A DNA stretch of 64,000 bases. Origin: Candidatus Omnitrophota bacterium. Lineage in GTDB: Bacteria > Omnitrophota > Gorgyraeia > Zapsychrales > Fredricksoniimonadaceae. Shown here piece after piece: positions 15,284 to 49,058 of this stretch. Each line of letters opens with the position of its first letter. The first letter of the stretch is position 1. The DNA lies in contig CAIVRE010000029.1 in NCBI GenBank assembly GCA_903908245.1, forward strand, positions 14,266-78,265, in the 5' to 3' direction. Under the pieces are notes generated by a model. That model ran no database searches. It had not been told where the DNA came from and worked only from the letters and a program-made list of their open reading frames with translations. A program made the position numbers and the translations under genes.

Positions 15284-15286
15284 GGA

Positions 15287-15975: not shown

Positions 15976-17970
<1,995 letters not shown>

Positions 17971-17971
<1 letters not shown>

Positions 17972-19563: not shown

Positions 19564-19584
19564 GATGCTCTCCTGAAAATTACC

Positions 19585-19605
19585 ATAAATTTAAATTATA
19601 ACAAT
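19585..19605 (-). promoter_or_regulatory. Putative extended -10 promoter (TGnTATAAT) for serA
   Basis: Minus-strand 'TGTTATAAT' (+ 19595-19603) about 30 nt upstream of the serA ATG. The 'AGGAGA' RBS lies 6 nt before the ATG. Confidence 0.3.
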
Positions 19606-19608
19606 AAT

Positions 19609-19632
19609 CAGGGAGGTTTGGAACCCTCCCCA
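19609..19632 (-). terminator. Putative intrinsic terminator hairpin downstream of the class-V aminotransferase gene
   Basis: Inverted repeat GGGAGG(G)TT...AACCCTCCC (+ 19611-19630). On the minus strand it is followed by the U-rich run 'UGAUUAUUGUUAU'. Confidence 0.4.
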
Positions 19633-19661
19633 CAACGAATATATCAAAAACACTTTGCCCT

Positions 19662-31297: not shown

Positions 31298-31318
31298 CCT
31301 TTGTCCACTCCTCTGAAA

Positions 31319-32419: not shown

Positions 32420-34509
32420 TTTAAAAATTTCTTGATCTCACCGTACACCTCACGGGCATTTATATCTTTCATACAGGCATGCGTCCCCGGTTTGCATTTT
32501 GTACTGTAACAGGCAGAACATTCCAGAACTTTGCGGATGACCGTCAAATGATCCGCCGGAGGGATATGCCTCCGGGGATCCGTCGGGCCGAACAACGCCA
32601 CCACAGGAGTTTTCATGGCGGCCGCGATATGTAACGGAGCGGAATCACTGGTCACATACACATCACAAAGCCCGATCAACGCTGAAAGTTGAAGGATCGT
32701 GGTCTTTCCTACTACCAGGCTCGGCCGGGATTTCGCGCGGGCCGCTATTTCTTTGGCAAAAGCCTTATCCTTTTCCATTCCGGTAATGAGCACCCGGATA
32801 TTATCCGCCGCCAAAAGGTCGCACAATTCGGCAATAGACTTCATCGGCCAGTTCTTGGTCGCCCAGCGCTCAGAAGCCGAAATGTTTATCCCGACGACAT
32901 TATGATGCTCCTCGTCGATCCACTCACCCTGCAAGAGTTCACGGGCATACGCCACATCATCCGGCCGCGGCCAAAGCTCAAGCCGGATCTTGTCATTAAA
33001 ACGGACACCGATCTCTTTGAGAACATTGAACTGATGCTGTACCGGCGGCATTTGAGGAAGGTCATCAGGGATGCCATGAGAAAGCAGCCTTCCGAATTTC
33101 TTGTTGTTATAGCCATAACTGGCCTGGGGCATGCACAGATACGCCACCAAATGGGTACGGATATTGTTCTGAAGATCGATCACCTTGTCAAACCGGTACT
33201 TGCGCAGGCGGATGATCAAATTCCAGAAACCCAACAGCCCCTTGTCTTTTTCATGATGATCGTAAACAATAACATCATCGATATAAGGGCAATTATGTAA
33301 AATAACCGCACTTTCCCTGGCCGTAAGGCAACAGATCCTGGCCCGGGGAAAAGAGTCCCTTAATGCCTTAAAAGACGCCGTAGCCAGGATCACATCTCCG
33401 ACAGCACCTAATTTGATCACCAGGATATTCAGGGAATGTTTAAGTTCATCATAAACAGCGAGGGTCTTTTGTGCCATTTGGTCAAGCGTATACTTTTCTT
33501 CAACACGCCGGCGGGCCTCCACACACATGGCGTCGCCTAACTTGCGGTCATTGATCAGCCTCAACACTGCCGCCGCAATGCCATCGGGATCCTTGGGCAA
33601 GACCAGGAGGCCTGTCTTTTCATGCTCAACGATATCGATCACACCGCCGACCTTGGCCGCGATCACCGGAACTCCCACGGCCTGTGCCTCGATAATAACC
33701 CTGCCAAAAGCCTCCGGAGTAACTGTCGATAACACCAGAACGTCGCTCTCCGCCAGGAGTTGCGGGATATCACTTCGGTTCCCCAGGAACTCCACTTTTT
33801 CCTGGATACCAAGGCGCTTGGTAAGCAGCAGAAGGCTTTCTTTATATGCCTGTTTGTCCACCGGGGCGTCCCCGACGATCCTGGCGCGCACATACGGGAG
33901 TTGACGCATTACCTTTGCCATCGCCTGAAGAAAATAGGCATGCCCTTTCAAAGGGGTGATCCTCCCGATGATCGTGACCGTGAACGAGGACTGCCCGGGC
34001 TGGCGTTCACGAAATTTGAATTTGTCCAGATCGACACTGCGATGAATGAGACGGATATTCTCCGGCTGTACGCCAAAATGCTCGATCATATGACGGCCGA
34101 TGATCTCACTGATAACGATCACCAGCTTGCCCCAGCCCATAACATGACTGAATATGTTCTGGGAATAATAGCCATGACAGGTGGTCAGGAAATCAACCCC
34201 TGTCCTGCGGCAGGCAAAATAGGCGATCAAGGCCGGAACGCGCGACCGGGCATGGACGATATCCACTTTTTCGTCGCGGATGATCTTTTCCAACGCACCA
34301 ACGCACTCCAATATCGTCCACCAATTCTTGCGATGGACCGGTAAAGAATAATGCCGGGCCCCCTGAGCTTCCAGCAGCGGGACCAAAGTCCCTCCGTTGG
34401 AGACAACGATCGACTGATGCCCGTGCGCGGCAATATATTTTGACAGGTCAAGCGTGCCCCGCTCAACCCCCCCCACGTTCATTTCAGGCAGTATCTGCAG
34501 TATTTTCAT
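32416..34509 (-). CDS. Bifunctional fusion: N-terminal GT4 glycosyltransferase + C-terminal GT9 heptosyltransferase
   Basis: Residues ~1-360 carry the GT4 motif 'EAFGRVIIEAQAVGVPVIAAKVGGVIDIV'. Residues ~365-697 carry GT9 signatures 'ILVIKLGAVGDVILATASFKAL' and 'SDSAPLHIAAAM'. 697 aa, single ORF. Confidence 0.75.
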   Translation of the reverse strand: MKILQILPEMNVGGVERGTLDLSKYIAAHGHQSIVVSNGGTLVPLLEAQGARHYSLPVHRKNWWTILECVGALEKIIRDEKVDIVHARSRVPALIAYFACRRTGVDFLTTCHGYYSQNIFSHVMGWGKLVIVISEIIGRHMIEHFGVQPENIRLIHRSVDLDKFKFRERQPGQSSFTVTIIGRITPLKGHAYFLQAMAKVMRQLPYVRARIVGDAPVDKQAYKESLLLLTKRLGIQEKVEFLGNRSDIPQLLAESDVLVLSTVTPEAFGRVIIEAQAVGVPVIAAKVGGVIDIVEHEKTGLLVLPKDPDGIAAAVLRLINDRKLGDAMCVEARRRVEEKYTLDQMAQKTLAVYDELKHSLNILVIKLGAVGDVILATASFKALRDSFPRARICCLTARESAVILHNCPYIDDVIVYDHHEKDKGLLGFWNLIIRLRKYRFDKVIDLQNNIRTHLVAYLCMPQASYGYNNKKFGRLLSHGIPDDLPQMPPVQHQFNVLKEIGVRFNDKIRLELWPRPDDVAYARELLQGEWIDEEHHNVVGINISASERWATKNWPMKSIAELCDLLAADNIRVLITGMEKDKAFAKEIAARAKSRPSLVVGKTTILQLSALIGLCDVYVTSDSAPLHIAAAMKTPVVALFGPTDPRRHIPPADHLTVIRKVLECSACYSTKCKPGTHACMKDINAREVYGEIKKFLK

Positions 34510-36476
34510 TGAACGATCTTTCTGACGGCGTCTAATAGCGCGGCGTTATCATCAATAGGGATTGTCATGGCTTTATCTCTCAGAAGCCGGTCGACGGCAT
34601 CCGCGACCTGCGTGGTCCGCGCATATACAACATGACCGCCGGCGCTCAACATCTCCGCGAACTGCGAATACTTGTTGACCAGCGGTTTACGGTCTGGCCC
34701 GTCGATAGGGAAAACAATGACCTTTTTCCCCGAAACAGCCGCTTCCGAAAGCATCGAGATGCTCTCGCCGGAAACAATAACAATATCCGACAGGCCAAGG
34801 ATCCCTCCGACCGCCTCAGGCACATTGTTCCTGGACGCAAGGATAAGAAGTGCCGAACGCGAAAAACCGCTAAATTCACGCGATACCAGCGCCTCGACCG
34901 CCGGGCTTGTCCGGCGGGACGTCGTTACAAGGATATCCGCGCTGAATTTCTCGGCGGCTTCCTTAAGCTGATGAATGACCACGCGCACCTGCTGCTCTCC
35001 CAGAACAAGCCCTTTCGTGTCCCCTCCGATCAGCAGGCCGATCTTCGGCCGGCCATGCAGCTTAAGATGGGAAAAACGGACGGTCAGGCCTCTGACATTT
35101 TCATCGAGATAGGCCTTATCCACCAGATTCGGCGCAACTTTTGTAATTAGAGTATTGGCTGTCACCGCCCCTTTGACATCATGCTGCGGCACCACGACCA
35201 GGTTAAATTGCCTTGCAGAAGGCCCCCCAGGTCGCAGGACACAAATACTCCGCGCCCCGTTATCGGCCGAAAACCACACATTGACCCAGGAATTCCTGGC
35301 CCCGCAGGAAATAACCACATCCGGTTTTACGGATAAAAGGAACGCATAACTTTCCTCTGTCAGAAACGGCTTCAGGGCTGAAAGGCCGAGACCGGCGAAC
35401 AACGGACGAAAGAATGAAAAAACCCTGAAAAGCATTGCCGCCGCTCTGCCGCGCCATTCGATCTTGACCGTTTGAACATTTCCCTTGAACTCCTTTGCCG
35501 TAAACGCGCAGGAAACCTGACGGGCCAGCGCTTGTGACTGGCGTAAATGGCCAGTGCGTCCGTCGTCCAGAATAACGATATCCCTGTCTTTGGAATACTT
35601 CCAGGTCTTATAGAACCATAAATACTCGGCCGGATGCTCTTGTGTCCACCTCTCGAACTGCCCGACGGCCCGGATCATATTGCGGCGCACATCCGGATCA
35701 ACCTCCCCCGTGCGTGTCAGGTCGAAGGGAAGGACTTTCAGGCAATGCGCCTGTCCGCGGACACGGCTGATATCCACCAGGCATACCGGGACATCATATT
35801 TGAGCGCGATCCTTATTGCTCCCGTCGACATTGAAGCCTCACGGCCGAAGAACGGGATCATCATTCCATCGTTACCGCCCTGATCGGCGACCAACGTCAC
35901 GATCTCATTACGTTTAAGGGCTTTGATGATCTCCCGCCCGCCGATCCCGGGATTAATGATCCGGCAACCAGCGCTCATTCTCCATGAGTCAAGCAGATCC
36001 GCCACCTTATTGACATGATCAAGATAATTGGCGACCATATTGTAAGGATGGCCACACAGACTTCCCGCGATGTTCGACAGCTCCCAGTTGCCGGAATGAA
36101 TGGAAAGGAAAATAAGCCCATGGCCTTTTTTTAAAAGCCTGTCAATGTTCTCCCGCCCCTGGACATCCACGTAACTGTCAAGACCGCGGGACGCGAATAA
36201 TGAAAGCCGCGCCACCTCGACAACATTCTGGCCATAATTACGGTAAATGTCCCAAACGATCCTGTCGATCTTTTCGAAAGATACGGACGCCCCCAACGCG
36301 ATGCGCAAATGCTGATACACCTTCCGGCGGTTCCCCGGATTGAACCAGAAGGCGAGCTCCCCCAGCCGGCGGCCTGTCCAAAGAGCAACGCCTATTGGCA
36401 TAGCCTTCATGACCGCTGAAATGCCCTTAAGAGCGGCGCAGGCGACGGATGATTGAAACGAGTTCAGTCTTGCCAT
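34506..36476 (-). CDS. Fusion of a lipid A biosynthesis LpxL/HtrB-family late acyltransferase (N-terminal) with a ~350-aa GT-B-like domain (ELM1/DUF1022-like or a divergent LpxB-like module)
   Basis: N-terminal ~300 aa show the 'LSIHSGNWELS' H-x4-E acyltransferase motif and LpxL-like layout. The C-terminal half has Rossmann-like 'IGLLIGGDTKG' and 'SGESISMLSEAAVSGKKV' motifs typical of the GT-B nucleotide-sugar binding half. 656 aa. Confidence 0.65.
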   Translation of the reverse strand: MARLNSFQSSVACAALKGISAVMKAMPIGVALWTGRRLGELAFWFNPGNRRKVYQHLRIALGASVSFEKIDRIVWDIYRNYGQNVVEVARLSLFASRGLDSYVDVQGRENIDRLLKKGHGLIFLSIHSGNWELSNIAGSLCGHPYNMVANYLDHVNKVADLLDSWRMSAGCRIINPGIGGREIIKALKRNEIVTLVADQGGNDGMMIPFFGREASMSTGAIRIALKYDVPVCLVDISRVRGQAHCLKVLPFDLTRTGEVDPDVRRNMIRAVGQFERWTQEHPAEYLWFYKTWKYSKDRDIVILDDGRTGHLRQSQALARQVSCAFTAKEFKGNVQTVKIEWRGRAAAMLFRVFSFFRPLFAGLGLSALKPFLTEESYAFLLSVKPDVVISCGARNSWVNVWFSADNGARSICVLRPGGPSARQFNLVVVPQHDVKGAVTANTLITKVAPNLVDKAYLDENVRGLTVRFSHLKLHGRPKIGLLIGGDTKGLVLGEQQVRVVIHQLKEAAEKFSADILVTTSRRTSPAVEALVSREFSGFSRSALLILASRNNVPEAVGGILGLSDIVIVSGESISMLSEAAVSGKKVIVFPIDGPDRKPLVNKYSQFAEMLSAGGHVVYARTTQVADAVDRLLRDKAMTIPIDDNAALLDAVRKIVQ

Positions 36477-37485
36477 AAGTCAATTCGAATTCCACATCGA
36501 TCACAATAAGCCTTATCCCGTTAAAAAGATCACGAAAATCCTTTAATTTCACATAATCCTTATGTGTAATAAAAACATTACCCAGCTTTTTCTCCCTGCA
36601 CTCTCCGACGATATTTTTAACATCCCGCGTGATATAACGATAATGATCTTCAAAAGGAATGAACACCTTAAGATCGATCCCAGCCCCCTTAAGCGTGCGC
36701 TTGAAACTATCCGGATCCCCGATCGCGCAAAATGCCGCGGCCGGCCCCGTGATACGATGCTGCTCTATCGTTCCTTCGCCAAAGACATCCCGTACCGCGC
36801 ATACACGATGCACCCCCTGGAACAATACCGCATCCGAAGCGATCCTCTTAAGCCTGGCTTTAAGAAGATCCAGCTCTTCTGTAGAGACACGGTCGACCCT
36901 CGTCAATACCAGAACTCCGGCACGGCGCAACATTCCCGGACTCTCGCGCAAGATCCCACGGGGGATCAAAAAACCATTACCCAAAGGTTCCCGGCTGTCG
37001 ACCAGGATAATATCAAGGTCACGTTTGAACCGCCATTGCTGAAATCCGTCGTCAAGGATCACGCAATCATAGCCCCCGGCCTTGAATGAAGACTGAAAAC
37101 TTCTGACACGGTCCGCCCCGGTAAAAACCCTTGGGCCAACAAGTTCTTTCAACATTTCCGCTTCATCACTGGCGCCCCCCTGCCCTCCCATAAACCCGCG
37201 GGTCAGGACCATCGGGTTATACCCTTCTTCCATTAAAACTTTGCAAAGCATGGCCACAAAAGGCGTCTTGCCGGTGCCTCCGGCTGTCAAATTCCCGACA
37301 CTGATCACAGGGACCGGCGCCTGAAAAACCTTAAAAATACCGGCCTCATAAAGCCATCGAACAAACATTACGACCGAACCATACGCCAGAGACAAGACCC
37401 ATAAGACCGGCCTAAGACACAAGGCTCCCGTCCCTTTTTCACGGTCCAGGGCAACATTTGTTAAATAACAGACCACCCTGTTCAT
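36427..37485 (-). CDS. lpxK: Tetraacyldisaccharide 4'-kinase
   Basis: P-loop 'VGNLTAGGTGKTPFV'. 352 aa. Lies between the lpxL-like and waaA genes. Confidence 0.85.
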   Translation of the reverse strand: MNRVVCYLTNVALDREKGTGALCLRPVLWVLSLAYGSVVMFVRWLYEAGIFKVFQAPVPVISVGNLTAGGTGKTPFVAMLCKVLMEEGYNPMVLTRGFMGGQGGASDEAEMLKELVGPRVFTGADRVRSFQSSFKAGGYDCVILDDGFQQWRFKRDLDIILVDSREPLGNGFLIPRGILRESPGMLRRAGVLVLTRVDRVSTEELDLLKARLKRIASDAVLFQGVHRVCAVRDVFGEGTIEQHRITGPAAAFCAIGDPDSFKRTLKGAGIDLKVFIPFEDHYRYITRDVKNIVGECREKKLGNVFITHKDYVKLKDFRDLFNGIRLIVIDVEFELTYGKTELVSIIRRLRRS

Positions 37486-38741
37486 TCACGCACCATTCCG
37501 GCGATCATATCGACCGCCCGTTGAGTTGCGCCTCGATTACGGTAAATGACCATTCTGGCCCGCTCACCAAACTCTGTCCTGAGCATAGGATCCGCCAGCA
37601 ACCGGTGAACGGCCTGCCCGAGCCCCTGAGCATCAACGACCTGGATCACAGCTTTTTCTGCACAAAACGCCTTGCTGATATCCCGAAAATTCTGCATATA
37701 CGGGCCCGTTATCACGGGCTTCCCGAACATCGCCGGTTCAATGATATTATGCCCGCCTTGGGCCGTCAGGCTCTTGCCAACAAAAACAACCGTTGCCAGC
37801 GAATAGAACCACGGCAAATGTCCGATCGTATCGACAACCATGACCTCTCCGCTATTCATCACCCCGTTCCTTTTCGAGAACAAGAACGGTTTCAATCCCG
37901 CTTGACGAACAAGTTCCGCCACAGCCAAAGACCTTTCCGGATGACGTGGCGCCAGAATAAGGCAAAGCCCCGGGAAAAGACCTCTTTCCGCCAGAAAAAC
38001 ATTGATCAGCAACTGCTCCTCGCCGTCATGTGTACTGCCTCCAAGCAACACCATTTGACCCGGCGCACAGCCATATTCTTTCGGGTCCGCGACAACAGCA
38101 TCAGGGACATTATCAAACTTCAAATTGCCAATGACCCGGACATTACGGCTGGCCGCACCTAATGCGATAACACGCCCGGCATCCAGTTCGCTTTGCATAC
38201 CAAAAACAGCCACCCGTTCCAGTGTTTTCTTAAGCAGCCACTTGACCCGGCGATAGCGGGGGAACGCCTGGTCGGAAATACGCCCGTTCAATACCAGGAT
38301 CGGGACCTTATCCACGGATAACCGGGCAAAAAGATTCGGCCAAAGTTCGGTCTCGGCCGCAACATACACCACCGGCCGTATCACACGGACAAAACTGTCA
38401 ACCGTAATGCTCAGATCAAGAGGCGACCATAGGACCGTCGCGATACCATGATATTTCCGCTGTGCAAATGAATAACCGGTCTTTGTCGTCACTGTCAGGA
38501 CGATCCGCCCGGAAGGGAACCTCGCACGCAAGCCAGCAACAACACCATCTATTGCGGCGACTTCCCCGACACTCACCGCATGCAGCCAAAGGTTCTCGCC
38601 CCTGGCCAAAGTCTGCGTAATATCGGGCCGGAAAAAACCAAACCGTTCCAGAAAGCCCTTGTGCCACTTCCCGCGCAACAAAAGTACCGGGAAATACAGG
38701 ATAAAATAAACCGTAAAGATAATATCGAAAAAAACAAACAT
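37482..38741 (-). CDS. waaA: 3-deoxy-D-manno-octulosonic acid transferase (Kdo transferase)
   Basis: 'LWLHAVSVGEVAAIDGVVAGL' N-terminal signature, GT30 layout. 419 aa. Confidence 0.88.
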   Translation of the reverse strand: MFVFFDIIFTVYFILYFPVLLLRGKWHKGFLERFGFFRPDITQTLARGENLWLHAVSVGEVAAIDGVVAGLRARFPSGRIVLTVTTKTGYSFAQRKYHGIATVLWSPLDLSITVDSFVRVIRPVVYVAAETELWPNLFARLSVDKVPILVLNGRISDQAFPRYRRVKWLLKKTLERVAVFGMQSELDAGRVIALGAASRNVRVIGNLKFDNVPDAVVADPKEYGCAPGQMVLLGGSTHDGEEQLLINVFLAERGLFPGLCLILAPRHPERSLAVAELVRQAGLKPFLFSKRNGVMNSGEVMVVDTIGHLPWFYSLATVVFVGKSLTAQGGHNIIEPAMFGKPVITGPYMQNFRDISKAFCAEKAVIQVVDAQGLGQAVHRLLADPMLRTEFGERARMVIYRNRGATQRAVDMIAGMVRE

Positions 38742-38747
38742 GGCCGC

Positions 38748-39608
38748 TTATGCCCTCGGGTGCGCCTTGTTATAAACACTCTTCAGCTTTTCAGTCGTCA
38801 AATGAGTATAGATCTGCGTAGTCGACAAATTCACATGCCCCAGGAGCTCCTGGACAGATCGCAGGTCCGCCCCGCGATTAAGCATATGCGTGGCAAAGGA
38901 ATGCCGGAACATATGCGGATGGACCTTCTGCGCAATGGCTGCGTGTGTAATATGTTTATTAATAATATTCCGTACGCTGCGCCCCGTCAGCCTTCCGCCG
39001 GACTTGTTCAAGAACAGCGCTTCACTTTTAAAGGGCCTTGCCTTCAAATATACAGAGATCGCCTCCGCGGCATTGGGCCCGATCGGAACGATCCTCTCTT
39101 TCTTCCCCTTGCCAAAAACCTTGATCATATGACCGGTAAGATCAACATCCTCCCGGCTTAATCCCACAAGCTCGCTGACCCGGATCCCCGCGGAATACAT
39201 GGTCTCAAAAAGCGCCTTGTCCCGCAGGTCGGAACCCTGTTCTTCGGACGGAGACTCCATCAATTTCAATGTGTCGTCTTCCGTCATAAAATGCGGCAGG
39301 ACCTTGTCGAGTTTTGGCGTCACCACCAGCGCCGCGGGATTCTTTAAGATCACCCCTTCCCTCTGAAGGAACCGAAAGAACGACCGAAGCACAGAGATCT
39401 TGCGGGACACACTGCGCGGACGAAGCTCCCTGGCCCGTAATTCCGCCAGAAAACGGCGAAGAGTCGGATACTCCACCTCTGTCACCCGTTCATGCCCCAG
39501 GAAAGCAAAGAATTCTTCAAGGTCAAGCCTGTAATTCAGGACCGTATGCCCGGAATAATTCTTCTCGACTTCCAAATGCTTAAGAAAACTTGCGATGATC
39601 GTATTCAT
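38748..39608 (-). CDS. Tyrosine recombinase, XerC/XerD type
   Basis: N-terminal SAM-like core-binding domain, catalytic 'R...HMFRHSFATHML...LLGH..L..TQIYTH' (R-H-R-H-Y). 286 aa. 6 nt upstream of waaA. Confidence 0.85.
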   Translation of the reverse strand: MNTIIASFLKHLEVEKNYSGHTVLNYRLDLEEFFAFLGHERVTEVEYPTLRRFLAELRARELRPRSVSRKISVLRSFFRFLQREGVILKNPAALVVTPKLDKVLPHFMTEDDTLKLMESPSEEQGSDLRDKALFETMYSAGIRVSELVGLSREDVDLTGHMIKVFGKGKKERIVPIGPNAAEAISVYLKARPFKSEALFLNKSGGRLTGRSVRNIINKHITHAAIAQKVHPHMFRHSFATHMLNRGADLRSVQELLGHVNLSTTQIYTHLTTEKLKSVYNKAHPRA

Positions 39609-39742
39609 AAAAAGATTTATATATTATAGCGAATAATGGCGTTATTGAAGGGAAAAGTCAGGAAATTCTTACCCGGGATAAAATACCGTTCCGGATCCGG
39701 TCACTTACTTCGCAGGAATGATCAAACGAAAATCGCAGGATA

Positions 39743-42040
39743 TCAAGCAGGCGGGGCTAAAGGGCTCGGCAGCAATGGATTGGAATTAAGTTCTAACAAT
39801 TGCGGCAAATTAACGGGTTCAATACGATAAATCACTGGAGTCAAACCATGAATGTTCGTCATATTTATAGGCTGGCCATTAATAATCATGGGTGCGGACT
39901 TTTCGGCTACATCGATCTGCATATCCAACTTCTTGGAGTTCAAGTCTATACCACCTGTATTTTTATCTTGAGCTTGAGAGAAATCCAATTTTTTTATTTC
40001 TAAATGATATCTCGACCCGCCAAATCTTAGTTTGATATTCCATCTATAGTATTCAGATTTTTTTAAAGATATAGCTATTAATAATGAAAAGTTTCCATAC
40101 AAATCAAGAACGCTTTTTGTTTCGCTCGTTGGATCATAAATATCTTCTATGGTATTAGCCCTTGTTACATTGATCAACTCACCCATGACTTCATTAAGAA
40201 AATTCAGCCCATATTCATAATTCTTAACACTTAACTTTTTTGACCACATCATTCCTTTGAGAAGATCTCCCAAACACTCCGCTAAAACCATATTGTCCTG
40301 ATTTGGGTGCAACAAAGAGCCAATTGCGAGGGCTCTATTCTTGTTTTCTTCAATTAAATTAAAAATTGCATCCTGATTGTCAACAAGAAACCGCATAGAA
40401 ACTTCTGAAACAAGAGAATCAAGAAATAAATAAAAATCAAAAGCATCCCGAAGATCGCTCGGATGCCATCCCTCTTTTTCAAGAAAGCATGCCAGTTTAT
40501 GAAGATCTGGCTTCAACATGTTCCACAAAGTCAACCTGTCTTTACTCCGCGAGTTATCCTTATCTTTTAAAAATTGTTCGTTCACAGCCCTTTGACGTTC
40601 TTGCCAATACGGGATCAATACCTCAAGGGCACGTTTCTTGTCTAAAATATCTATTCTATTACTATCCCGTGAATTGATAACTTCCAACAGTTTTTCAATT
40701 TCCAGCCTTTTCTTTTCCTCTGCAATACGCAGCTGACGTCGTTTATTCCAACGAGAAACGCCATAACCACCCACAGCCAAGGCTCCTGCCACGCCCGCCC
40801 ATAAAGCGATCTGGCCGCCAAGCGGCATTTTAAAATACCAGTTCCCAACCTTAAGCTCCTCAGGAGCCGATTGAGTTTCACCTGCTAAACCTGAGGAAGC
40901 TACAACCGGCACATTGGACGCACCGGATACCAGTAAAACGACATTACTTGCAGATACTGTAGCCGCCTCGACATCCGCACGAACAGCCGGCGCTAATAAA
41001 GTCAGTGAACCAATAAAAATACCTCCCGCGATCAACAACGGAGCCACTTTGTTCATGAATCCACCTGAGAAATACCGCCTGGGAATTGTCGCCCCGGTCA
41101 CAATATCCGTATCTTCACGAATAAAGTTATAAGCCCCCTTCTGAACAGATGCCAAGTACTCTTTATAAATCACTTCTTTATCAACAGTATCCAGGAACCC
41201 AACCCCTGGAGTCTTGTTCTTATCCGCATACCCCCGCCCCAACACGCTTTCCTTAAGCCTGATCTTATACCAGGACGCCAGGATCATCGCCGAGTAGATC
41301 TGCCTCAACTGGGCAAAATGCGCGCCCTCATTAACTTCTTTTTCCAACACCGGAATAAGAACCTCCCGGTAAATGTCTGTCATCCCCTGCTTGGGATCAG
41401 TTCCTTCGCCCTTGCCGGTAGAAGCAAGATAATCCGCCTCCAACATGACCTTTAAACGGCTTTTAATGATAATAACCTTGCCATTGTTCTCCCAAACACG
41501 CGCTTCGGAAGGAACGATCCATACCCGGTTAAAAGCATCTGTGCTGGGTGCATCAAGGCCTTTGGCCGCAGCTGTTTCATAAATCCTGGCCCAAAAAGCC
41601 TTGCCTGTCTCACTGTCAGGATGTAACAGCGATGATGACAATTGCTTGAGAATATAATCTTCGCCTAAAAGATCACGCCCCATCACTGTCTGGCCAAAGC
41701 CATCCGGAATGATCCGGTCCGGCTCAACCGGCGACAGGTTGACCCATTGTTCCTCCTCAGGAACGGTTAATGACGACAGGAAATACCTGACTGCTTTATC
41801 TGCTTCCTGACGTAAAGCTTCGCCTTGAACCTTGTTAGTCCCTGTATCCATCAGGAAATCAAACTTGAAAGGCTCATCAGGATGAATAACCATCCCCTTT
41901 AAAACAGGCGGAGTGACCGATGCCCCCAGCGGCAAAATAACATCAGGCGCAGGCAATATAACCTGGGCCATAGCTCCCTGCGGGAACACATTACTAACAA
42001 TAAAGGCAACAAGAAGAAATACTGAAATTAATCGTTTCAT
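39743..42040 (-). CDS. Large exported/membrane protein of unknown function (signal peptide, ~300-aa periplasmic domain, two TM helices, ~330-aa cytoplasmic domain)
   Basis: 765-aa uninterrupted ORF. N-terminus 'MKRLISVFLLVAFIVSNVFPQGAMAQ' is signal-peptide-like. Hydrophobic helices 'LLIAGGIFIGSLTLLAPAV' and 'IALWAGVAGALAVGGYGV' are followed by 'NKRRQLR'. No motif of a known enzyme family recognised. Confidence 0.6.
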   Translation of the reverse strand: MKRLISVFLLVAFIVSNVFPQGAMAQVILPAPDVILPLGASVTPPVLKGMVIHPDEPFKFDFLMDTGTNKVQGEALRQEADKAVRYFLSSLTVPEEEQWVNLSPVEPDRIIPDGFGQTVMGRDLLGEDYILKQLSSSLLHPDSETGKAFWARIYETAAAKGLDAPSTDAFNRVWIVPSEARVWENNGKVIIIKSRLKVMLEADYLASTGKGEGTDPKQGMTDIYREVLIPVLEKEVNEGAHFAQLRQIYSAMILASWYKIRLKESVLGRGYADKNKTPGVGFLDTVDKEVIYKEYLASVQKGAYNFIREDTDIVTGATIPRRYFSGGFMNKVAPLLIAGGIFIGSLTLLAPAVRADVEAATVSASNVVLLVSGASNVPVVASSGLAGETQSAPEELKVGNWYFKMPLGGQIALWAGVAGALAVGGYGVSRWNKRRQLRIAEEKKRLEIEKLLEVINSRDSNRIDILDKKRALEVLIPYWQERQRAVNEQFLKDKDNSRSKDRLTLWNMLKPDLHKLACFLEKEGWHPSDLRDAFDFYLFLDSLVSEVSMRFLVDNQDAIFNLIEENKNRALAIGSLLHPNQDNMVLAECLGDLLKGMMWSKKLSVKNYEYGLNFLNEVMGELINVTRANTIEDIYDPTSETKSVLDLYGNFSLLIAISLKKSEYYRWNIKLRFGGSRYHLEIKKLDFSQAQDKNTGGIDLNSKKLDMQIDVAEKSAPMIINGQPINMTNIHGLTPVIYRIEPVNLPQLLELNSNPLLPSPLAPPA
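39746..40740. other. Low-GC (~37% by eye vs ~53-55% elsewhere in the window) segment encoding the C-terminal cytoplasmic domain of the 765-aa protein; probably horizontally acquired
   Basis: Abrupt drop in GC at ~40740, coinciding with the second TM helix of the encoded protein. Flanking intergenic regions 39609-39742 and 42041-42159 are also AT-rich. Confidence 0.6.
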
Positions 42041-42159
42041 GTAACTCTCGAATGATTAGGTTCGCTTAAATATTACACGGCGCAACAATATGGCAAAAAT
42101 AGAAAAGGATGTGAAAGTGTAACATGCAATAAGAAAAAAACAAGAGTACCAGGGAGAAA

Positions 42160-44154
42160 TTACTTTTCGGGAGTTACAGCTGGTTGTTCGGAAGGTTTGA
42201 CCGGGAGCTTGTTGGAAATATGTTTACAATCAGGATATTTATTGCAGCCGTAAAATACTCCGCCGCGATGATTTCGCCGCTCGACCAGCTCCCCTTCACA
42301 CCCTTCACTCGGACATTTGATCCCCATCGGATATGGTTCGGCGTGTTTACAATTGGGAAAGTTCGAACAACTCAGGAAACGGCCATTCCGGCCCCATTTA
42401 ACGACCATCGTATTGTCGTTGCATTTCGGGCATGACTTCCCGAAAGAAATACTGGTCTTTTCAATGGACGCCATTGCCCTGTCAAGTTCTTCCTTGAATG
42501 GGCCATAAAAATCCTTAAGCAACTTCACATGGTCAAGCGCACCCTCTTCCACCAGGTCGAGGCTTTCTTCCATGCTGGCCGTAAACCCGATATCCAGGAC
42601 CTTCGGAAAACTGGCGACCAGAAGGTCGCAGATAATGAACCCGAGCTGTGTCGGAGTTATGTACCCGCGATCACGCGTAACATAATTGCGCAGCACAACA
42701 GTCTGGATGATCGATGCGTAAGTGCTCGGACGACCGATACCGTCCTCTTCCATTGTCTTGACCAGAGATGCTTCCGAAAAACGTGCCGGAGGCTTGGTAA
42801 AATGCTGGGTGGGTTTGATCTCGGTCATCTGCAGGATATCCCCCTCATCATAAAAAGAAAGGTCCTGTTTCTTTTCCTCATCATCCGCTGTCTTATAAAG
42901 CGCCAGACACCCGGGGAATATCAGTGTTGAACCCGAAGCGCCGAACTGATACTGGCCGGCCGTGATCTCGACTTTTTTTGTTTCAAAGACAGCCGGAGCT
43001 ATCTGACAACTCACAAACCTCTTCCAGATAAGGTCGTATAATTTTGATTGGTCTTCGGACAGGAATTTTCTGATGGACTCCGGCGTCCGCGCAACATCCG
43101 ATGGACGGATAGCTTCGTGGGCTTCCTGGGCAGACTTCCTGGACTTGAACTTGTTCGGTACAGCCGGAAGATGATCTTCCCCGTAATTCTTTGCAATATA
43201 TTTACGGACTTTCTCGATCGCTTCATTGGCGATATTCACGGAATCTGTACGCATATAGGTGATCAAACCAACCGCGTCCTCATCCCCGATCTCGACACCT
43301 TCGTAAAGTTCCTGAGCGACCATCATCGTGCGTTGGGCATTAAAACCCAGCTTGGAGAAGGCCTCCTGCTGAAGCGTACTGGTAATGAACGGCGGCAAAG
43401 CATTGCGTTTGACTTCACGCACATTGACCGAACTGATACGAAATAACTTTGCCTTAAGATCATCGGCGATCGACCGGGACTCCTCCGCGGTCTTAAGCTC
43501 AGGCTTAACACCATTGATCCTCTCAAGCTGGGCTTCAAGGAGGTCCCGTGCGCCATCTTTCTTTAATAATACACCCACCTGCCAGTATTCCACAGGGACA
43601 AACTTCTGGATCTCGCGCTCACGATCGACAATAAGCCGCAAGGCCACCGATTGAACACGCCCGGCGCTCAAACGGCTCCCCACCTTCTTCCAAAGGATAG
43701 GGCTGATCGAATAGCCTACGATACGATCCAGGATCCGGCGGGCATTCTGCGCATTGATCTTGCTTTGGCTGAAATCATGTTTATTCTCAAAAGCCTTCAG
43801 GACCGCTTCTTTGGTGATCTCGTGAAAAACAACGCGAAATACTTTCTTGCCACCTGTTGCCAAATGCGGTACCAGGTTCCAGCCAATGGCCTCCCCTTCA
43901 CGGTCAGGGTCAGTAGCGAAATAGATCTCTGTCTTGCCTTCCGCTTCTTTCTTAAGCTTCCCCAGTACTTTCTGCTTGGCGCGCACAACGATCAGCTTCG
44001 GTTCAAAATTATTATCGACATCCACGCCCAACATGGATTTGGGAAGGTCGATCAAATGCCCCATCGAAGACGTGACCTTGTAACGGCTTCCAAGGATCTT
44101 GTTGATGGTCTTCACTTTGGCCGGTGATTCTACAATAACAAGTGCTTTTGACAT
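42160..44154 (-). CDS. topA: DNA topoisomerase I
   Basis: TOPRIM 'ALVIVESPAKVKTI', catalytic region, and C-terminal C4 zinc ribbons ('CPKCNDN...', 'CSNFPNCKH', 'CNKYPDCKH'). 664 aa. Confidence 0.92.
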   Translation of the reverse strand: MSKALVIVESPAKVKTINKILGSRYKVTSSMGHLIDLPKSMLGVDVDNNFEPKLIVVRAKQKVLGKLKKEAEGKTEIYFATDPDREGEAIGWNLVPHLATGGKKVFRVVFHEITKEAVLKAFENKHDFSQSKINAQNARRILDRIVGYSISPILWKKVGSRLSAGRVQSVALRLIVDREREIQKFVPVEYWQVGVLLKKDGARDLLEAQLERINGVKPELKTAEESRSIADDLKAKLFRISSVNVREVKRNALPPFITSTLQQEAFSKLGFNAQRTMMVAQELYEGVEIGDEDAVGLITYMRTDSVNIANEAIEKVRKYIAKNYGEDHLPAVPNKFKSRKSAQEAHEAIRPSDVARTPESIRKFLSEDQSKLYDLIWKRFVSCQIAPAVFETKKVEITAGQYQFGASGSTLIFPGCLALYKTADDEEKKQDLSFYDEGDILQMTEIKPTQHFTKPPARFSEASLVKTMEEDGIGRPSTYASIIQTVVLRNYVTRDRGYITPTQLGFIICDLLVASFPKVLDIGFTASMEESLDLVEEGALDHVKLLKDFYGPFKEELDRAMASIEKTSISFGKSCPKCNDNTMVVKWGRNGRFLSCSNFPNCKHAEPYPMGIKCPSEGCEGELVERRNHRGGVFYGCNKYPDCKHISNKLPVKPSEQPAVTPEK

Positions 44155-44207
44155 GCTTCATACTTTCCACAAAAACGCTGTATTTGCAACGACTTTTTAA
44201 ATTAAAG

Positions 44208-45362
44208 TCAGCAAGGCTCATAAATCTTTCCAGGAAGTTCGCGTACAATACGCCTTAACTGCAAGCTTAAACACACCCCTATCAGCGCCGGCAGAGGCAA
44301 GATCGCACGGGCCGACAGGGCATCAAAGGAACACCGTCCTTCCTGAAGGATATCCAGGACCCTGATCTCATCTGCTGTAAGGTCGTCCGGCCTCTTCGCT
44401 TTCTCTTTCGGGAAAAGCTCGGGCTGACTCTGCATGCCCGGGATATCTTCAAAAATATCTTCCACACAAAGAACGATCTTTGCTCCATGCCGCATCAACT
44501 CATGCGGCCCTCGTGATTGCGGGGAATCAATACGCCCGGGAACTGCATAAACCTCTCTCCCCTGCTCTAATGCAAATTCGGCCGTGATCAGCGCGCCGCT
44601 TCGCGCATTAGCCTCCACTACCACAACTCCATGGGACAAAGCACTGACAATACGATTGCGCCGCGGAAAATTATACGGCATTGGTTCCGCCCCCAATGGA
44701 AATTCAGAAACAAGGCACCCCCGGTCAGAAACCTCGGCATATAGCCCTTTGTTCTGTAAAGGATAGACCATATCCAGCCCGCACCCCAGGACTCCGACCG
44801 TCCGTCCACCGGCCTTCAGCGCGCCGCGATGCGCCGCCGCATCTATCCCCCGGGCCATACCGGAAATAACAGCCGCACCCGCTTCCGCCATCCGCATGGC
44901 AAAACGCTCCGCAATGCCCAATCCATAAGCGGTAGCCCCGCGAGCTCCAACGATCGCAATGGCCACATCCTCCGGAGCAAGCATTTTTCCCTTAACGTAC
45001 AACACGATCGGCGGGTCTGCGATCTCTTTAAGCCGCCCGGGATAATCGTCATCAGTGATCGTGACGATCCTCGCCCCCAGATCTGTCGTTTTAGCTTCTT
45101 CTTTGTGTTGAAAATCTGATGCGGGAAAATGAACAAGATTGATAACAGCTTTCTCGCTGATCCCCAGCGATACCGCGGCTTCCGCCGGCGCTGTATTCAT
45201 AAGCCTGTGCCAGAAATCCTCTTGCTGACTTAACCGGAATGCCGTGCGCGGAGTTAGCCCGGATACTGCGTTAAGCGCGATCAGCGCTGCGCGGGGAGTA
45301 ACGGGAGAGGACCTTAAGGATCTCATCGACCACCTTGCCGATATTATCCTCATCTGAATCAA
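44208..45362 (-). CDS. dprA: DNA processing protein DprA (Smf)
   Basis: Rossmann-like DprA core '[33 protein letters not shown]', C-terminal winged helix. The true start is probably an internal Met (around 45326), since the ORF overlaps the aroK 3' end. Confidence 0.85.
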   Translation of the reverse strand: [384 protein letters not shown]

Positions 45363-45813
45363 TGAGGAAATCAGCCTTGCGGTAATGGGGGTCGCGTTCG
45401 GCCAGTAGTTGCTTTATTTTTGCCAGCGGGTCCGGAACATTCAGGAGCGGCCTGTCTGTTTTCCCTCTGGTCCGTCGAAACACAGCCTCAGGCGAGGCAT
45501 ATAAATAAAAACTGACCCCCGTCTTTTTAAGCACATTAAAATTCACTTCATCCCGCGCCACACCGCCGCCGCAATCAATAACAAGGTCCTCACGCAAAGC
45601 GACCTCGGCCACGATCTGACGTTCGACCTGACGAAAATACGGCTCACCCGACTGCGAAAAGATATCCGCGATACTGCGCTTCTCACGATGCTCGATCAAT
45701 TCATCCGTCGAGACCCGCTCACGTTTTAACCGTACGGCCAACTCACGGGAAGTAAAAGTTTTTCCGCACGCCATGAAACCGACCAAAACAATATTCTTCG
45801 ATAAATTAAACAT
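45271..45813 (-). CDS. aroK: Shikimate kinase
   Basis: P-loop 'LVGFMACGKTFTSRELA'. 180 aa. Confidence 0.85.
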   Translation of the reverse strand: MFNLSKNIVLVGFMACGKTFTSRELAVRLKRERVSTDELIEHREKRSIADIFSQSGEPYFRQVERQIVAEVALREDLVIDCGGGVARDEVNFNVLKKTGVSFYLYASPEAVFRRTRGKTDRPLLNVPDPLAKIKQLLAERDPHYRKADFLIDSDEDNIGKVVDEILKVLSRYSPRSADRA

Positions 45814-45843
45814 AGAGGAATTATAACAAGTTTTGATGATTTG

Positions 45844-46239
45844 TCAAAATATCTCTTTTAACGGCCGCATGACAAAATCCCGCTCGTTCATCCGTGGATG
45901 CGGGATAACGAGGTCCGGTTCATTAAACCGAATATCATCATAAGTTAAAATGTCGATATCGATCGTGCGCGGGCCGTCCTTGATGCCCCTCACCCGACCA
46001 AGCAATGCTTCGATCTGATGAATGACCTTAAGCAGCTCTCGGGGTGAAAGATCCGTCTCCGCCTTGACTGCGGCATTAAGGAAAAAACCCTGCGGGGGGC
46101 CTCCCACGGGGTCAGTTTCAATAATAGTCGAAACTTTAAGGACCTTGACGCCGGACTTGTTAAGCAAGCCCAACGAGTCCTGAATGTTTTTGGCGCGGTC
46201 TCCAAGGTTGGAACCAAGGCCAAGACATACAATAGACAA
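45844..46239 (-). CDS. folK: 2-amino-4-hydroxy-6-hydroxymethyldihydropteridine pyrophosphokinase
   Basis: 'LGLGSNLGD', 'GPRTIDIDIL', 'IPHPRMNERDFVLRPL'-type motifs. 131 aa. Confidence 0.85.
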   Translation of the reverse strand: MSIVCLGLGSNLGDRAKNIQDSLGLLNKSGVKVLKVSTIIETDPVGGPPQGFFLNAAVKAETDLSPRELLKVIHQIEALLGRVRGIKDGPRTIDIDILTYDDIRFNEPDLVIPHPRMNERDFVMRPLKEIF

Positions 46240-46241
46240 GC

Positions 46242-47453
46242 TCAGTTCCCCTGACTTTGCGATTCCTCGCCTTTCAGGCTCGGAATGACGGCTAAGACCT
46301 TGGCCATGCGCTGGACAGCTTCATGAATGCGTTCAACAGGGAGCGTAAGCGACATGCGGACATAACCTTCCCCGCTTTTGCCGAAGCCTACCCCGGGCGT
46401 CATCACAATATCCGCCTGATCCAGGAACGCCTTGGCACATGTCATCGAGTCAGGGAACCTGGACGGGATCTTCGCCCAAACATAGAACGCGGCCTTCGGC
46501 GGGTCGATCTTCCAACCGATAGAACGGCAGCCATTGATCAAGGCATCCCTCCGTTCCTGATAGCAGGTGCGCATATCTTCGATCTCGACCGGATCGATCT
46601 TAAGCGCCGCGATCCCTGCATGCTGAATGGCATTGAACACGCCGGAATCCACATTCGACTTCACCTTGGCCAGCGCCGCAATCAGTTGCGCATTACCACA
46701 GGCCCAACCCAGACGCCATCCGGTCATAAAATATGTCTTTGAAAATGAATGGAACTCGATCGCGATATCCTTGGCCCCGGGGATCTCCAGGATGCTCGGC
46801 GGCTTTACGCCGTCATAATAAACTTCTGAATATGCCAGATCAGAAACAATAATGATATTTTTCGCCGTACAAACTCTTACCAGATCTGTATAGAACTGCT
46901 TGTTCGCCACTGCTGATGTCGGATTATTGGGATAACAGACAATAATAGCCTTAACGTTCTTCGCCTCTTCAATATCCGATATCTTCGGCAAAAAATCATT
47001 TGATGCCTTAAGTGACAAATACTGGATCTTGCCACCGGCAAAAGTCACTGCCGCCTGATATGCCGGATACGCCGGATCTGTTAAAAGGACTTTCTCTCCC
47101 GGATTAATAACAGCCAGCGGAAAATGCGCCAACCCTTCCTTGGAGCCAATGAGCGGATAGATCTCACTCGCGGGGTCAAGGTCAACGCCGAAACGCCCTT
47201 TAAACCACTTGGCAATATCCACGCGCAGCTGCGGTACACCGGCATCAAAAGGATAATGATGATTGCTGCCGTCTTCGATCGCTTTTTTCATGGCGTCAAT
47301 GATCGGTTTATGGGTGGTCTGGTCTGGATCACCTACGCCCAGGTTGATAACATCCCTGCCCTGCGCCATCGCTTCGCGCTTGGCCTTATCGATCGCCAGG
47401 AAGAGATACGGCGGAAGCTGCTTTAATCGTTCGGATACCTCGAAATTAACCAT
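46242..47453 (-). CDS. dapL: Class I/II aminotransferase, probably LL-diaminopimelate aminotransferase (DapL)
   Basis: 'LPPYLFLAIDKAKREAMAQGRDVINLGVGDPDQ' N-terminal pattern typical of DapL. 403 aa. Directly upstream of dapB-dapA-dapF-lysA, and no dapD/dapE are in the cluster. Confidence 0.7.
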   Translation of the reverse strand: MVNFEVSERLKQLPPYLFLAIDKAKREAMAQGRDVINLGVGDPDQTTHKPIIDAMKKAIEDGSNHHYPFDAGVPQLRVDIAKWFKGRFGVDLDPASEIYPLIGSKEGLAHFPLAVINPGEKVLLTDPAYPAYQAAVTFAGGKIQYLSLKASNDFLPKISDIEEAKNVKAIIVCYPNNPTSAVANKQFYTDLVRVCTAKNIIIVSDLAYSEVYYDGVKPPSILEIPGAKDIAIEFHSFSKTYFMTGWRLGWACGNAQLIAALAKVKSNVDSGVFNAIQHAGIAALKIDPVEIEDMRTCYQERRDALINGCRSIGWKIDPPKAAFYVWAKIPSRFPDSMTCAKAFLDQADIVMTPGVGFGKSGEGYVRMSLTLPVERIHEAVQRMAKVLAVIPSLKGEESQSQGN

Positions 47454-47457
47454 TACA

Positions 47458-48171
47458 TTAAACTCCCATCACTTCCTGCATGTTATACAATCCGTTATCT
47501 TTGTACGCCACGAACTTGGCGGCAACAAGCGCGCCTTCGGCGAACATGTCGCGGGTGTTCGCGTTATGCGATATCTCGATGGTGTCAACGACGCCCTTGA
47601 ATATCACCTTGTGATAGCCGATGACCTCCCCCTCGCGAATGGATTCGATCGGTATGGGCTGCATCTGCCCGGCATTCTGGATGATCTCCCCCATGGTCTT
47701 GGCTGTTCCTGACGGAGCATCCTTCTTATGGATATGGTGGGTCTCGGTAATGGAAATATCATACCCTTTTAACGCCTCCGCCATCTTGCGCAAAAGGCCG
47801 AACAGGACATTGACTCCCACCGACATATTGGAAGAACGCACGATCCCGAGCTTTCTTGACACTTCAATGATCTCCGCATCCTGTTCGGCCGTCAGACCGG
47901 TGGTCCCGATCACCATACGGACCCGGTATTTCAAACAAGTTTGGATATTAACCATTGTTGCCTGGGGCACGGTGAAGTCGATGAGCACATCCGCCCCTTT
48001 GATCGCATTAATATCCGTCGAAATCTTCACGCCGCCGACAGACTCCGGGAGATCCGGGCAATCAGGACGTTCGATCAACGCAACGATCTTGATCTCCTTG
48101 TTCTGCAATGCCAGTTCCGTTATGCGTTTGCCCATCCTGCCCTGACAACCGGCGACAGCGAGTTTGATCAT
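47458..48171 (-). CDS. dapB: 4-hydroxy-tetrahydrodipicolinate reductase
   Basis: 'KLAVAGCQGRMGKRI' NAD(P)-binding, 'GTTGL'. 237 aa. Confidence 0.9.
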   Translation of the reverse strand: MIKLAVAGCQGRMGKRITELALQNKEIKIVALIERPDCPDLPESVGGVKISTDINAIKGADVLIDFTVPQATMVNIQTCLKYRVRMVIGTTGLTAEQDAEIIEVSRKLGIVRSSNMSVGVNVLFGLLRKMAEALKGYDISITETHHIHKKDAPSGTAKTMGEIIQNAGQMQPIPIESIREGEVIGYHKVIFKGVVDTIEISHNANTRDMFAEGALVAAKFVAYKDNGLYNMQEVMGV

Positions 48172-48179
48172 ATATTCCT

Positions 48180-49058
48180 TTAAATTAATTTGTATTGTTT
48201 TAAAACCGCTTTAAGGATTGCCAAATTCCCGGGTTCCATTGAGCACATGGGCAAACGGAGACTCGGGGAACAAAGCCCCATCAGCCCGCAGGAAGTCTTA
48301 ACAGGAATAGGGTTGGTTTCAATGAACATCGCCTTGATCAAAGGCAAAAGTTTTTCCTGCTTTATTTCAGCCTCTTTCACCTTGCCATTGAGCATTAAGT
48401 TCACAACCTCGGCAACTTCTTTAGGGATAATATTCGCGACGACCGAAATAACGCCGGTACCGCCCAGCTTCATCATGGGAATGGTCAAGGCGTCATCCCC
48501 GGACAAGATCGCGAACTTCTTGCCGCAAGCCTCCCTGACAGCCTTGGCCTGCTCAACATTCCCCGATGCCTCCTTGACACCGACTATATTTTTACAGGTC
48601 CTGGCCAATTGTTTAACTGTCGCCGTTTCGATATTGCGTGCGCAGCGGCCCTCGATGTTATAAAGGATGATCGGGATCTTCACGCTGTCCGCTACTGCCT
48701 TGAAATGCAGATAAAGCCCTTTTTGAGTCGGCTTGTTGTAATAAGGAGTGACCACCAGCGCCGCATCAGCGCCGGCATCTTCTGCGTGTTTCGTCAGACG
48801 GACCGCTTCAACGGTCGAGTTGGAACCTGTTCCGGCGATGACCGGGATACGCCCGTTCACCGTATCGACCACGATCTCGATGACACGGTCATGCTCTTCA
48901 TGGGAAAGGGTCGGTGATTCTCCAGTGGTCCCGCAAGGGACAATACCTTGAGTGCCATTCTTTATCTGAAATTCAACCAGCTCCGCCAGCTTGCGTTCAT
49001 CCACGCCGTGCTCCGTAAAAGGCGTTACCAAAGCAACGATCGACCCTTTAAATCCCAT
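48180..49058 (-). CDS. dapA: 4-hydroxy-tetrahydrodipicolinate synthase
   Basis: 'GIVPCGTTGESPTLSHEEH', with catalytic Lys context. Start set at 'MGFKGSIVALVTPF'. Confidence 0.9.
   Translation of the reverse strand: MGFKGSIVALVTPFTEHGVDERKLAELVEFQIKNGTQGIVPCGTTGESPTLSHEEHDRVIEIVVDTVNGRIPVIAGTGSNSTVEAVRLTKHAEDAGADAALVVTPYYNKPTQKGLYLHFKAVADSVKIPIILYNIEGRCARNIETATVKQLARTCKNIVGVKEASGNVEQAKAVREACGKKFAILSGDDALTIPMMKLGGTGVISVVANIIPKEVAEVVNLMLNGKVKEAEIKQEKLLPLIKAMFIETNPIPVKTSCGLMGLCSPSLRLPMCSMEPGNLAILKAVLKQYKLI

Follow-up and report, generated by a model that had tools for sequence, protein, structure and literature searches.

A gene inserted between topA and xerC of an Omnitrophota bacterium as a putative chimeric member, with orphan cargo, of an apparently undescribed family of head-cargo-tail proteins

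Among effectors of type VI secretion systems (T6SS), the MIX domain is a conserved marker of proteins that otherwise vary. The same logic is described, in the passages concerned, for TANFOR of Bacteroidetes (PMC7073777) and for FIX of T6SS effectors, in which a conserved domain with no assigned function marks a family whose other end is highly variable, as in the proteins reported here. In the relevant parts of the survey of polymorphic toxin systems by Zhang et al. (2012, PMC3482391), Tox-REase-5 and the XOO_2897 deaminase are listed as toxin domains, the former being paired with the immunity protein Imm52. In this work we analysed a window of 64,000 nucleotides (the whole stretch of DNA under study) from Candidatus Omnitrophota bacterium (assembly GCA_903908245.1, contig CAIVRE010000029.1, positions 14,266 to 78,265), in which a gene for a protein of 765 amino acids (aa) lies between topA and xerC. 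The Omnitrophota, bacteria that are uncultured and for the most part ultra-small, are suspected to live on other cells. As judged from its sequence, the gene is one member of a large, dispersed and multicopy Omnitrophota family with a fixed layout, and it is probably an inserted intrafamily chimera, in which head and tail would form a constant export or presentation module for a swappable cargo.

At least 701 relatives were found among 5.8 billion proteins, and every one that carries an organism name is assigned to "Candidatus Omnitrophica"; the per-member counts given below refer to the 120 listed matches. The family order is a Sec signal peptide, a head of about 300 aa, an interchangeable cargo and, at the C-terminus, a tail of about 60 aa with the motif GGIDL. 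Residues 1-330 of our protein, which contain the head, are common to all 120 matches at 40-60% identity. The tail (residues ~690-755) was found by BLAST in 68 of them, always at their own C-terminus, and residues 380-680 are covered by nine proteins at most, mostly by one to three, the query entry included. With a hidden Markov model (HMM), exactly one tail was detected in 107 members, at a median distance of 6 residues from the C-terminus; among the 13 exceptions at least four are annotated as partial, several others seem to be truncated and the tail of P0117 is degenerate.

The open reading frame (ORF) in the window is recognised by the head HMM at E = 8.6e-142, with all 34 invariant columns present, and by the tail HMM at E = 4.8e-25 over residues 691-754 of 765 (aligned positions 696-759 of the 770-residue stop-to-stop frame, which starts five codons upstream of the ATG). 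Invariant columns of the head number 34-43, with the motifs WVNLSP, GRDLL..DY.LKQ, VWIVP, LKVMLE.DY, EKEVNEG..F..LRQ and RKYFSGG, and the tail consensus reads GGIDLN..L.LQIKRDG.G.PLP..QQ....I.GF.PVI..I.P. A signal peptide followed by an LPxPG-type head start is present in 94 of the 120 members; it is built of a K/R n-region, a hydrophobic core and a c-region ending in YAQ or AQA, and its counterpart in our protein consists of MKR, a hydrophobic core and AMA/Q, followed by ILPAP.

Between these constant ends most of the middles are mutually unrelated, and 63 of 119 are singletons among the listed members. Those that can be annotated are complete domains placed between head and tail, namely PGK (which covers profile positions 6-377 of 379), PFK, AidB/ACAD, NUDIX, HAD and GNAT, besides S-adenosylmethionine (SAM) methyltransferases, starch synthase, PP2C, HTH and, very often, HEAT repeats. 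Each protein carries one cargo and measures 466-1337 aa (119 listed matches). The closest relative, P0002, aligns to our protein over residues 3-377 and 679-753 and not between them. The closest head relatives, P0002-P0004 (54-60% identity), sit in unrelated housekeeping neighbourhoods. Three members were found in ~330 kb of unbiased Omnitrophota sequence, a density which extrapolates to roughly 10-30 copies per genome. The head and the family lack a Pfam or NCBIfam model, and our literature search found no description of the head, the tail, the family or its motifs; the family is apparently undescribed, and the topA-xerC gene is apparently a new member with an orphan cargo.

Another Omnitrophota locus (L004, 1-10547) holds three family members in tandem, one of them of 1748 aa with a glucan-water-dikinase/PPDK_N-like cargo. 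This tandem shows that local duplication has occurred besides dispersal.

The features of the gene and its surroundings, by position in the window, are as follows:

42160..44154, minus strand: topA, 664 aa, the conserved upstream neighbour at the left edge of the insert, with orthologs of 54-91% identity in 21 Omnitrophota loci
42041..42159, minus strand: AT-rich 5' leader of 119 bp, part of the insert and unalignable to the empty junctions of loci L005 and L006
42115-42087 and 42096-42069, minus strand: two sigma-70-like promoter matches in the leader, by consensus match only
41963..42040, minus strand: predicted Sec-type signal peptide, residues 1-26, by hydropathy
41051..41962, minus strand: conserved head, residues 27-330, mixed alpha/beta, no relative detected in the PDB
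40751..41050, minus strand: linker, residues 331-430, with three hydrophobic segments (H1-H3), by hydropathy
39971..40750, minus strand: orphan low-GC cargo, residues 431-690, predicted to be all-helical at low confidence
39746..39970, minus strand: GGIDL tail, residues 691-765, matched by the tail HMM
39743-39745, minus strand: stop codon of the 765-aa ORF
39675..39742, minus strand: 3' trailer of the insert, ~68 bp, without counterpart in the empty junctions
within 39675..39742, minus strand: short CCGGATCCGG palindrome and then a T-rich run, noticed by reading and unflagged by the terminator scan
39609..39674, minus strand: ancestral topA-xerC intergenic DNA (xerC upstream region) at the right edge, by alignment to loci L005, L006 and L013
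38748..39608, minus strand: xerC, 286 aa, a housekeeping tyrosine recombinase outside the insert, with orthologs 59-83% identical

The topA-xerC junction was compared at 21 Omnitrophota topA loci (TopA identity 54-91%), 19 of which extend past topA and are informative. In 17 of these 19 the order is dprA-topA-xerC-kdtA-lpxK, the 765-aa gene is absent and the topA-xerC gap measures 51-461 bp. The two closest relatives (TopA 91% and 90%) both have an empty junction, with gaps of 155 and 85 bp. An earlier note on this DNA, made from the sequence alone, had proposed that the gene is accessory, and the junctions bear this out. Because window positions 39674..39638 match L005 11003..11039, starting 10 nt after the topA stop of L005, the right edge of the insert is placed near 39675; the alignments of L006 and L013 are similar. 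The left edge is the topA stop codon, and the insert of ~2.49 kb consists of the 119-bp leader, the ORF and the ~68-bp trailer. By these alignments, then, the lineage-specific insert comprises the entire gene together with a leader and a trailer of its own. The note had suspected only the 3' half of being foreign, joined to a native-looking N-terminal half; a compositional break within the gene is indeed present, but the N-terminal half was inserted together with the rest.

Since the synteny is conserved in relatives without the 765-aa gene, xerC is a housekeeping gene and not the integrase of an element, and the connection once suggested between this recombinase and the gene is lost. No inverted or direct repeat pair and no target-site duplication were found at the mapped edges of the insert, and neither a tRNA gene (within 30000-50000) nor a transposase was found. 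A transposon or genomic island was rejected given the lack of terminal repeats, target-site duplication and tRNA gene, and given that the recombinase lies outside the insert. The story of a defence island beside an integrase gives way to a gene that is documented as inserted whole and that is, in its composition, an intragenic chimera. From the stop codon to the ancestral xerC upstream DNA there are only ~68 bp, with no immunity-like ORF, and no conserved small partner gene adjoins P0002, P0003, P0004 or the family member of locus L009.

The latter locus (TopA 80%) carries at the same junction a different family member (11032-14295, 1087 aa), with a head 42% identical to ours, another cargo and a full tail. 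The spacer could have been entered twice, independently, or an old insertion could have undergone turnover. Its cargo shows a phosphoribosyltransferase-like VIVIDDVLNRG motif and internal repeats. Two close relatives depart from the usual gene order: in L005 (TopA 91%; region 1-9000) dprA is absent upstream of topA, its place being taken by a tail-bearing family member of 1490 aa that ends at 4471, and in L007 (TopA 86%; region 10990-19989) no xerC lies within 9 kb downstream of topA.

The ORF occupies 39743..42040 on the minus strand, with an ATG start, topA upstream and xerC downstream. The mean GC content of the window is 0.517 (standard deviation 0.031, 600-bp windows), and the window-wide minimum of 0.34 falls at 39900-40500; all seven lowest 600-bp windows lie inside 39500-40700, in agreement with the AT-rich setting first noticed for this ORF. 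The step occurs within the ORF at residues ~425-450 (nt ~40690-40765), in keeping with the ~40740 originally proposed, and it is abrupt, not gradual. The head has a GC of 0.48 (0.51 at third codon positions, GC3) and the linker one of 0.52 (GC3 0.41), compared with 0.356 (GC3 0.338) in the cargo and 0.42 (GC3 0.43) in the C-terminal 75 residues that form the tail. Among the 47 ORFs of the window with at least 250 aa (GC3 0.607±0.042), this one has the lowest GC3. The mosaic character claimed for the protein is therefore supported by a sharp compositional break inside the ORF. However, low GC is not confined to one C-terminal module, as had been thought, since it runs on from the cargo through the conserved tail and the 3' trailer. 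Nor does a foreign effector form the C-terminus: the cargo is internal and a conserved family tail follows it.

Given its composition, the 335 AT-rich codons would be free of stops with P ~4.5e-12, and the other five frames hold 14-32 stops each. The AT-rich half is real coding sequence because such a stop-free run is improbable and the other frames are full of stops. Additionally, a GC dip of comparable size is absent from the four other family members checked at the DNA level, and the compositional anomaly is therefore specific to the topA-xerC copy.

In accordance with the lack of an assignable family stated beforehand, the 765-aa protein returned no Pfam or NCBIfam match at E up to 10, no defence family of PADLOC-DB v2 at E up to 10 and only a noise-level match in PHROGs. 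For the cargo (residues 430-690) a word-indexed protein search gave no matches; this was taken as a weak negative because the parent protein P0001, which is present in the database, was not returned either, and negatives of this kind call for caution when queries are AT-rich or of low complexity. An exhaustive HMMER search was hence run with residues 431-690 against 1.84 billion cluster representatives, and it yielded the self-match and P0121, a junk tandem-repeat translation. No recognisable toxin domain was found in the cargo with Pfam and NCBIfam at E up to 10, and with the same libraries the protein showed no nuclease, NTPase, TIR, SIR2 or similar effector domain and no HisKA/HATPase, GGDEF, EAL, cyclase or kinase output domain. 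AlphaFold2 (AF2) modelled the cargo, which adjoins the hydrophobic segments, as about ten helices at a predicted local distance difference test (pLDDT) of 50-65, compared with more than 90 in the head and 83-95 in the tail strands.

Three hydrophobic segments, and not the two transmembrane (TM) helices that had been counted before, follow the head: H1 at 332-350, H2 at 367-385 and the weak H3 at 411-429, the last followed by seven K/R in 15 residues. Residues up to ~377 are common to the closest relatives, and linker residues 351-376 are modelled at a pLDDT of ~90. From the basic flank after H3, the sequence of the topA-xerC copy suggests a periplasmic head with cargo and tail in the cytoplasm. 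A cytoplasmic cargo requires an odd number of passes, either H3 alone or H1, H2 and H3 together; the arrangement proposed earlier, a signal peptide with exactly two helices and a cytoplasmic C-terminus, is inconsistent, as it would put the C-terminal domain outside. Topology is also not uniform across the family, because 72 of the 120 listed members have no hydrophobic segment after the head. An envelope-spanning sensor layout is accordingly no family trait, and no output domain was found with Pfam or NCBIfam.

H1 itself (residues 331-350, nt 40991-41050) resembles an internal signal peptide, with MNK, a hydrophobic core and AVRA/D. A similar segment stands right after RKYFSGG in about 13 of the 120 listed members, preceded by K/R and followed by AQA-like residues. 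Cleavage or release could take place here, or the segment could be left over from a fusion with a secreted protein.

The head-only AF2 model is confident (predicted template modelling score 0.76), and no structural relative was found in the PDB or in the viral structure set BFVD. A sequence profile search of the PDB gave only spurious coiled-coil matches in the noisy middle columns. Relatives of the head were found by tblastn of plasmids, which returned five Streptomyces megaplasmid proteins with E down to 2e-25. A follow-up search led to 103 proteins, the named ones almost all actinobacterial, and the Omnitrophota head HMM recognises all 103. Alignment of the Omnitrophota and actinobacterial heads with hhalign gave a probability of 100% and E = 2.4e-39 over 278 columns. 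In the actinobacterial proteins a variable domain lies N-terminal of the head, and the annotatable cases are an XOO_2897-like deaminase (PF14440) or Tox-REase-5 (PF15648); after the head come DUF11, a TM anchor or an LAxTG sortase signal. In Actinobacteria one GG(I/V)D(F/L) motif immediately precedes the head and another closes it. The likeness between the Omnitrophota tail and the actinobacterial pre-head hairpin GGIDFSTLEL stays at the motif level (hhalign E 0.009 over 14 columns). The idea that the tail is a split-off C-terminal continuation of the head, suggested by actinobacterial heads that end in GGVDF, was set aside as doubtful, since hhalign places the Omnitrophota head's own ...YFSGGF on that motif.

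The Streptomyces plasmid relatives (loci L085-L089; for example L086 4741-7191 and L087 1768-4161) are annotated as hypothetical or remain unannotated. They are built of a signal peptide, a variable N-terminal domain, GGIDF, the head, GGVDF, a low-complexity region and, as anchor, LAxTG or a TM segment. Such a layout is unusual and recalls polymorphic toxins, with an N-terminal toxin. The gene of L089 adjoins one for a PrsW-family protease.

No relatives were found in phages by tblastn, and in IMG/VR they were met on only 5 of 2.9 million contigs, with cellular neighbouring genes. Phage carriage was rejected on both grounds.

The GC break lies just after H3 (~residue 430), some 50 residues beyond the point (~377) at which similarity to the closest relatives ends. 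Within-family recombination probably joined a head of ordinary composition to cargo plus tail from a lower-GC member; we infer recombination because the transfer of a whole gene from a low-GC donor would leave a uniform composition. Head and tail would act as a constant module for export, envelope presentation or delivery, with the cargo supplying the variable activity. This role is suggested by the signal peptides, by the near-obligate coupling of head and tail and by the homology of the head to a toxin-accompanying domain of surface-anchored actinobacterial proteins. Several points weigh against such an account. The GC drop is partly due to the amino acid composition of the cargo: K, N and L abound in it, and GC is low at first and second codon positions too, not at the third alone. 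The role ascribed to the head comes only from domain co-occurrence in another phylum. The Omnitrophota cargoes are metabolic enzymes needing adenosine triphosphate, SAM or coenzyme A, which is odd for exported proteins, and the tail, as 72 of the 120 listed members have no TM segment after the head and others have one, may face different sides of the membrane in different members, contrary to one simple mechanism. An immunity-like neighbour is absent both at the topA-xerC gene and at the sampled family loci. More speculatively, the family might be a phylum-wide means of Sec-dependent cargo delivery or display, by which ultra-small, host-dependent cells would bring dozens of exchangeable enzymes and adaptors to their surface or into partner or prey cells, sharing ancestry with a hitherto unrecognised carrier domain of actinobacterial toxins and exchanging cargo by recombination between the constant ends, with the orphan cargo as an effector freshly captured or newly arisen and observed shortly after a swap; we regard this wider proposal as possible, yet tentative.

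The same constant ends and variable cargo could belong to a scaffold directed at the cell itself, tethering its own enzymes and HEAT adaptors through the head as a periplasmic or membrane anchor, as a non-covalent counterpart of the giant proteins of this phylum. On this view the gene would play no part in conflict and would be an ordinary member that evolves fast. Such a scaffold agrees with cargoes (methyltransferase, GNAT, HAD, starch synthase, GT1, NUDIX, HEAT) that match the giant-protein repertoire in the portions of the bioRxiv report that list it (10.64898/2026.06.07.730766), with members scattered among housekeeping genes and with the absence of immunity genes. Yet the only relatives of the head outside the phylum accompany toxin domains, presence and absence vary at a conserved junction, the foreign composition of the orphan cargo suggests rapid turnover instead of housekeeping, and a fully exported PGK or PFK would be without substrates, so that we consider a self-directed scaffold unlikely. 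Among the candidates put forward in the earlier note, a polymorphic effector that has lost its partner fits best, given the constant ends, the swappable middle and the homology of the head to a domain of toxin proteins; no immunity-like partner gene lies beside it. Were the protein a classical polymorphic toxin, its helical cargo, possibly along with the hydrophobic segments it adjoins, would be membrane-active or otherwise toxic and be delivered to competitors or prey, the immunity gene being lost or located elsewhere. The head homology to Tox-REase-5 and XOO_2897-deaminase proteins, the pairing of constant parts with a hypervariable one, the place of a helical cargo beside hydrophobic segments and the view of Omnitrophota as epibionts or predators (PMC10066038; 10.1101/2023.11.21.568195) speak for a toxin. 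Even so, we think it quite improbable: Pfam gives no toxin match, no toxin cassettes lie downstream and no immunity-like ORF fits in the 68 bp before ancestral DNA, the cargoes of sibling proteins are metabolic enzymes of an ordinary kind and HEAT repeats, the variable part lies inside the protein and not at the C-terminus, and a Foldseek match to an NheA-like structure was not significant (E 0.64).

Decay of the copy would account for the composition in another way, with a former cargo under relaxed constraint drifting to AT-richness and the GC drop reflecting mutational bias, not foreign origin. The cargo is an orphan with a low-confidence AF2 model, all three codon positions are depressed and the gene is dispensable in relatives, but the long stop-free run amid stop-filled alternative frames, the intact tail downstream of the cargo and the abruptness of the transition make decay very unlikely. 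Least credible of all, and close to dismissed here, is the leading idea of the earlier note, a single-gene system of anti-phage or envelope-stress defence. An accessory gene of odd composition whose product possibly spans the membrane could suit it; however, there is no PADLOC signature, no effector domain, no neighbouring defence gene and no phage association, and a large family with metabolic cargo is a poor fit to defence.

Three observations stand apart from these questions. A 13-nt inverted repeat (92% complementary; 42040-42052 / 42166-42178) matches the last codons of topA to the ribosome-binding site and start codon of the ORF and spans the 119-bp leader; it could occlude the start of the ORF in a topA read-through transcript, or it may be due to chance. 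The single Rfam match is a sub-threshold Twister-sister at 43631-43682 on the plus strand, antisense inside topA (21.3 bits against a gathering threshold of 34, E 0.51), most likely a chance match. Downstream of lpxK, an ORF of 656 aa (34506-36476, minus strand) seems by eye to be a fusion, its N-terminal half resembling a lipid A biosynthesis acyltransferase and a further domain being joined to it.

These results are of value less for the single gene itself than for the family that it brings to light and for the link of that family to actinobacterial toxin carriers. With at least 700 proteins, the family is a concrete and testable candidate for part of the effector or surface-enzyme repertoire of Omnitrophota. 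Abundant, confidently modelled and without a structural relative in the PDB or a Pfam entry, the head is a candidate for a new family definition.

On a small scale, the family may also parallel this phylum's giant multi-enzyme proteins, which, in the sections describing them, likewise combine a signal peptide or TM segment with cytoplasmic-type enzymes (bioRxiv 10.64898/2026.06.07.730766; West-Roberts et al., 10.1101/2023.11.21.568195). According to those sections, the Pfam repertoires overlap in PF08241, PF00583, PF13419, PF08323, PF00534, NUDIX, HEAT and PPDK_N. The giants differ in tiling many enzymes over 10,000-147,000 aa, as given there, in contrast to the single cargo and much shorter length of the proteins listed here. 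Term searches of these reports and one section of them contain no mention of the head or the tail.

Among the polymorphic toxin systems (Zhang, Aravind et al. 2012, PMC3482391), the nearest to this family are the actinobacterial PF15648/PF14440 surface proteins, through their ~250-290-aa domain homologous to the Omnitrophota head; that domain does not figure in the passages of the survey that bear on PrsW. In both phyla a constant module is joined to a variable one, export signals are present and a GG(I/V)D(F/L) motif directly follows the variable module. The order differs: in Actinobacteria the toxin precedes the head, and a TM anchor, LAxTG or DUF11 closes the protein, whereas the Omnitrophota members place the head ahead of an internal cargo and finish with a conserved tail as a separate part. 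Unlike in polymorphic toxins, moreover, the cargo is no recognisable toxin, and neither an immunity gene nor spare cassettes accompany it. With TANFOR and MIX/FIX there is no sequence relationship, and those proteins carry variable C-terminal toxins and use dedicated secretion systems, in contrast to the head-cargo-tail proteins, which have Sec signal peptides, a constant module at either end and cargo made up mostly of metabolic enzymes or HEAT repeats. Conceptually, the family belongs among the secreted families that combine a constant with a variable module, from which it is set apart by its missing immunity partner, its type of cargo and its two constant ends.

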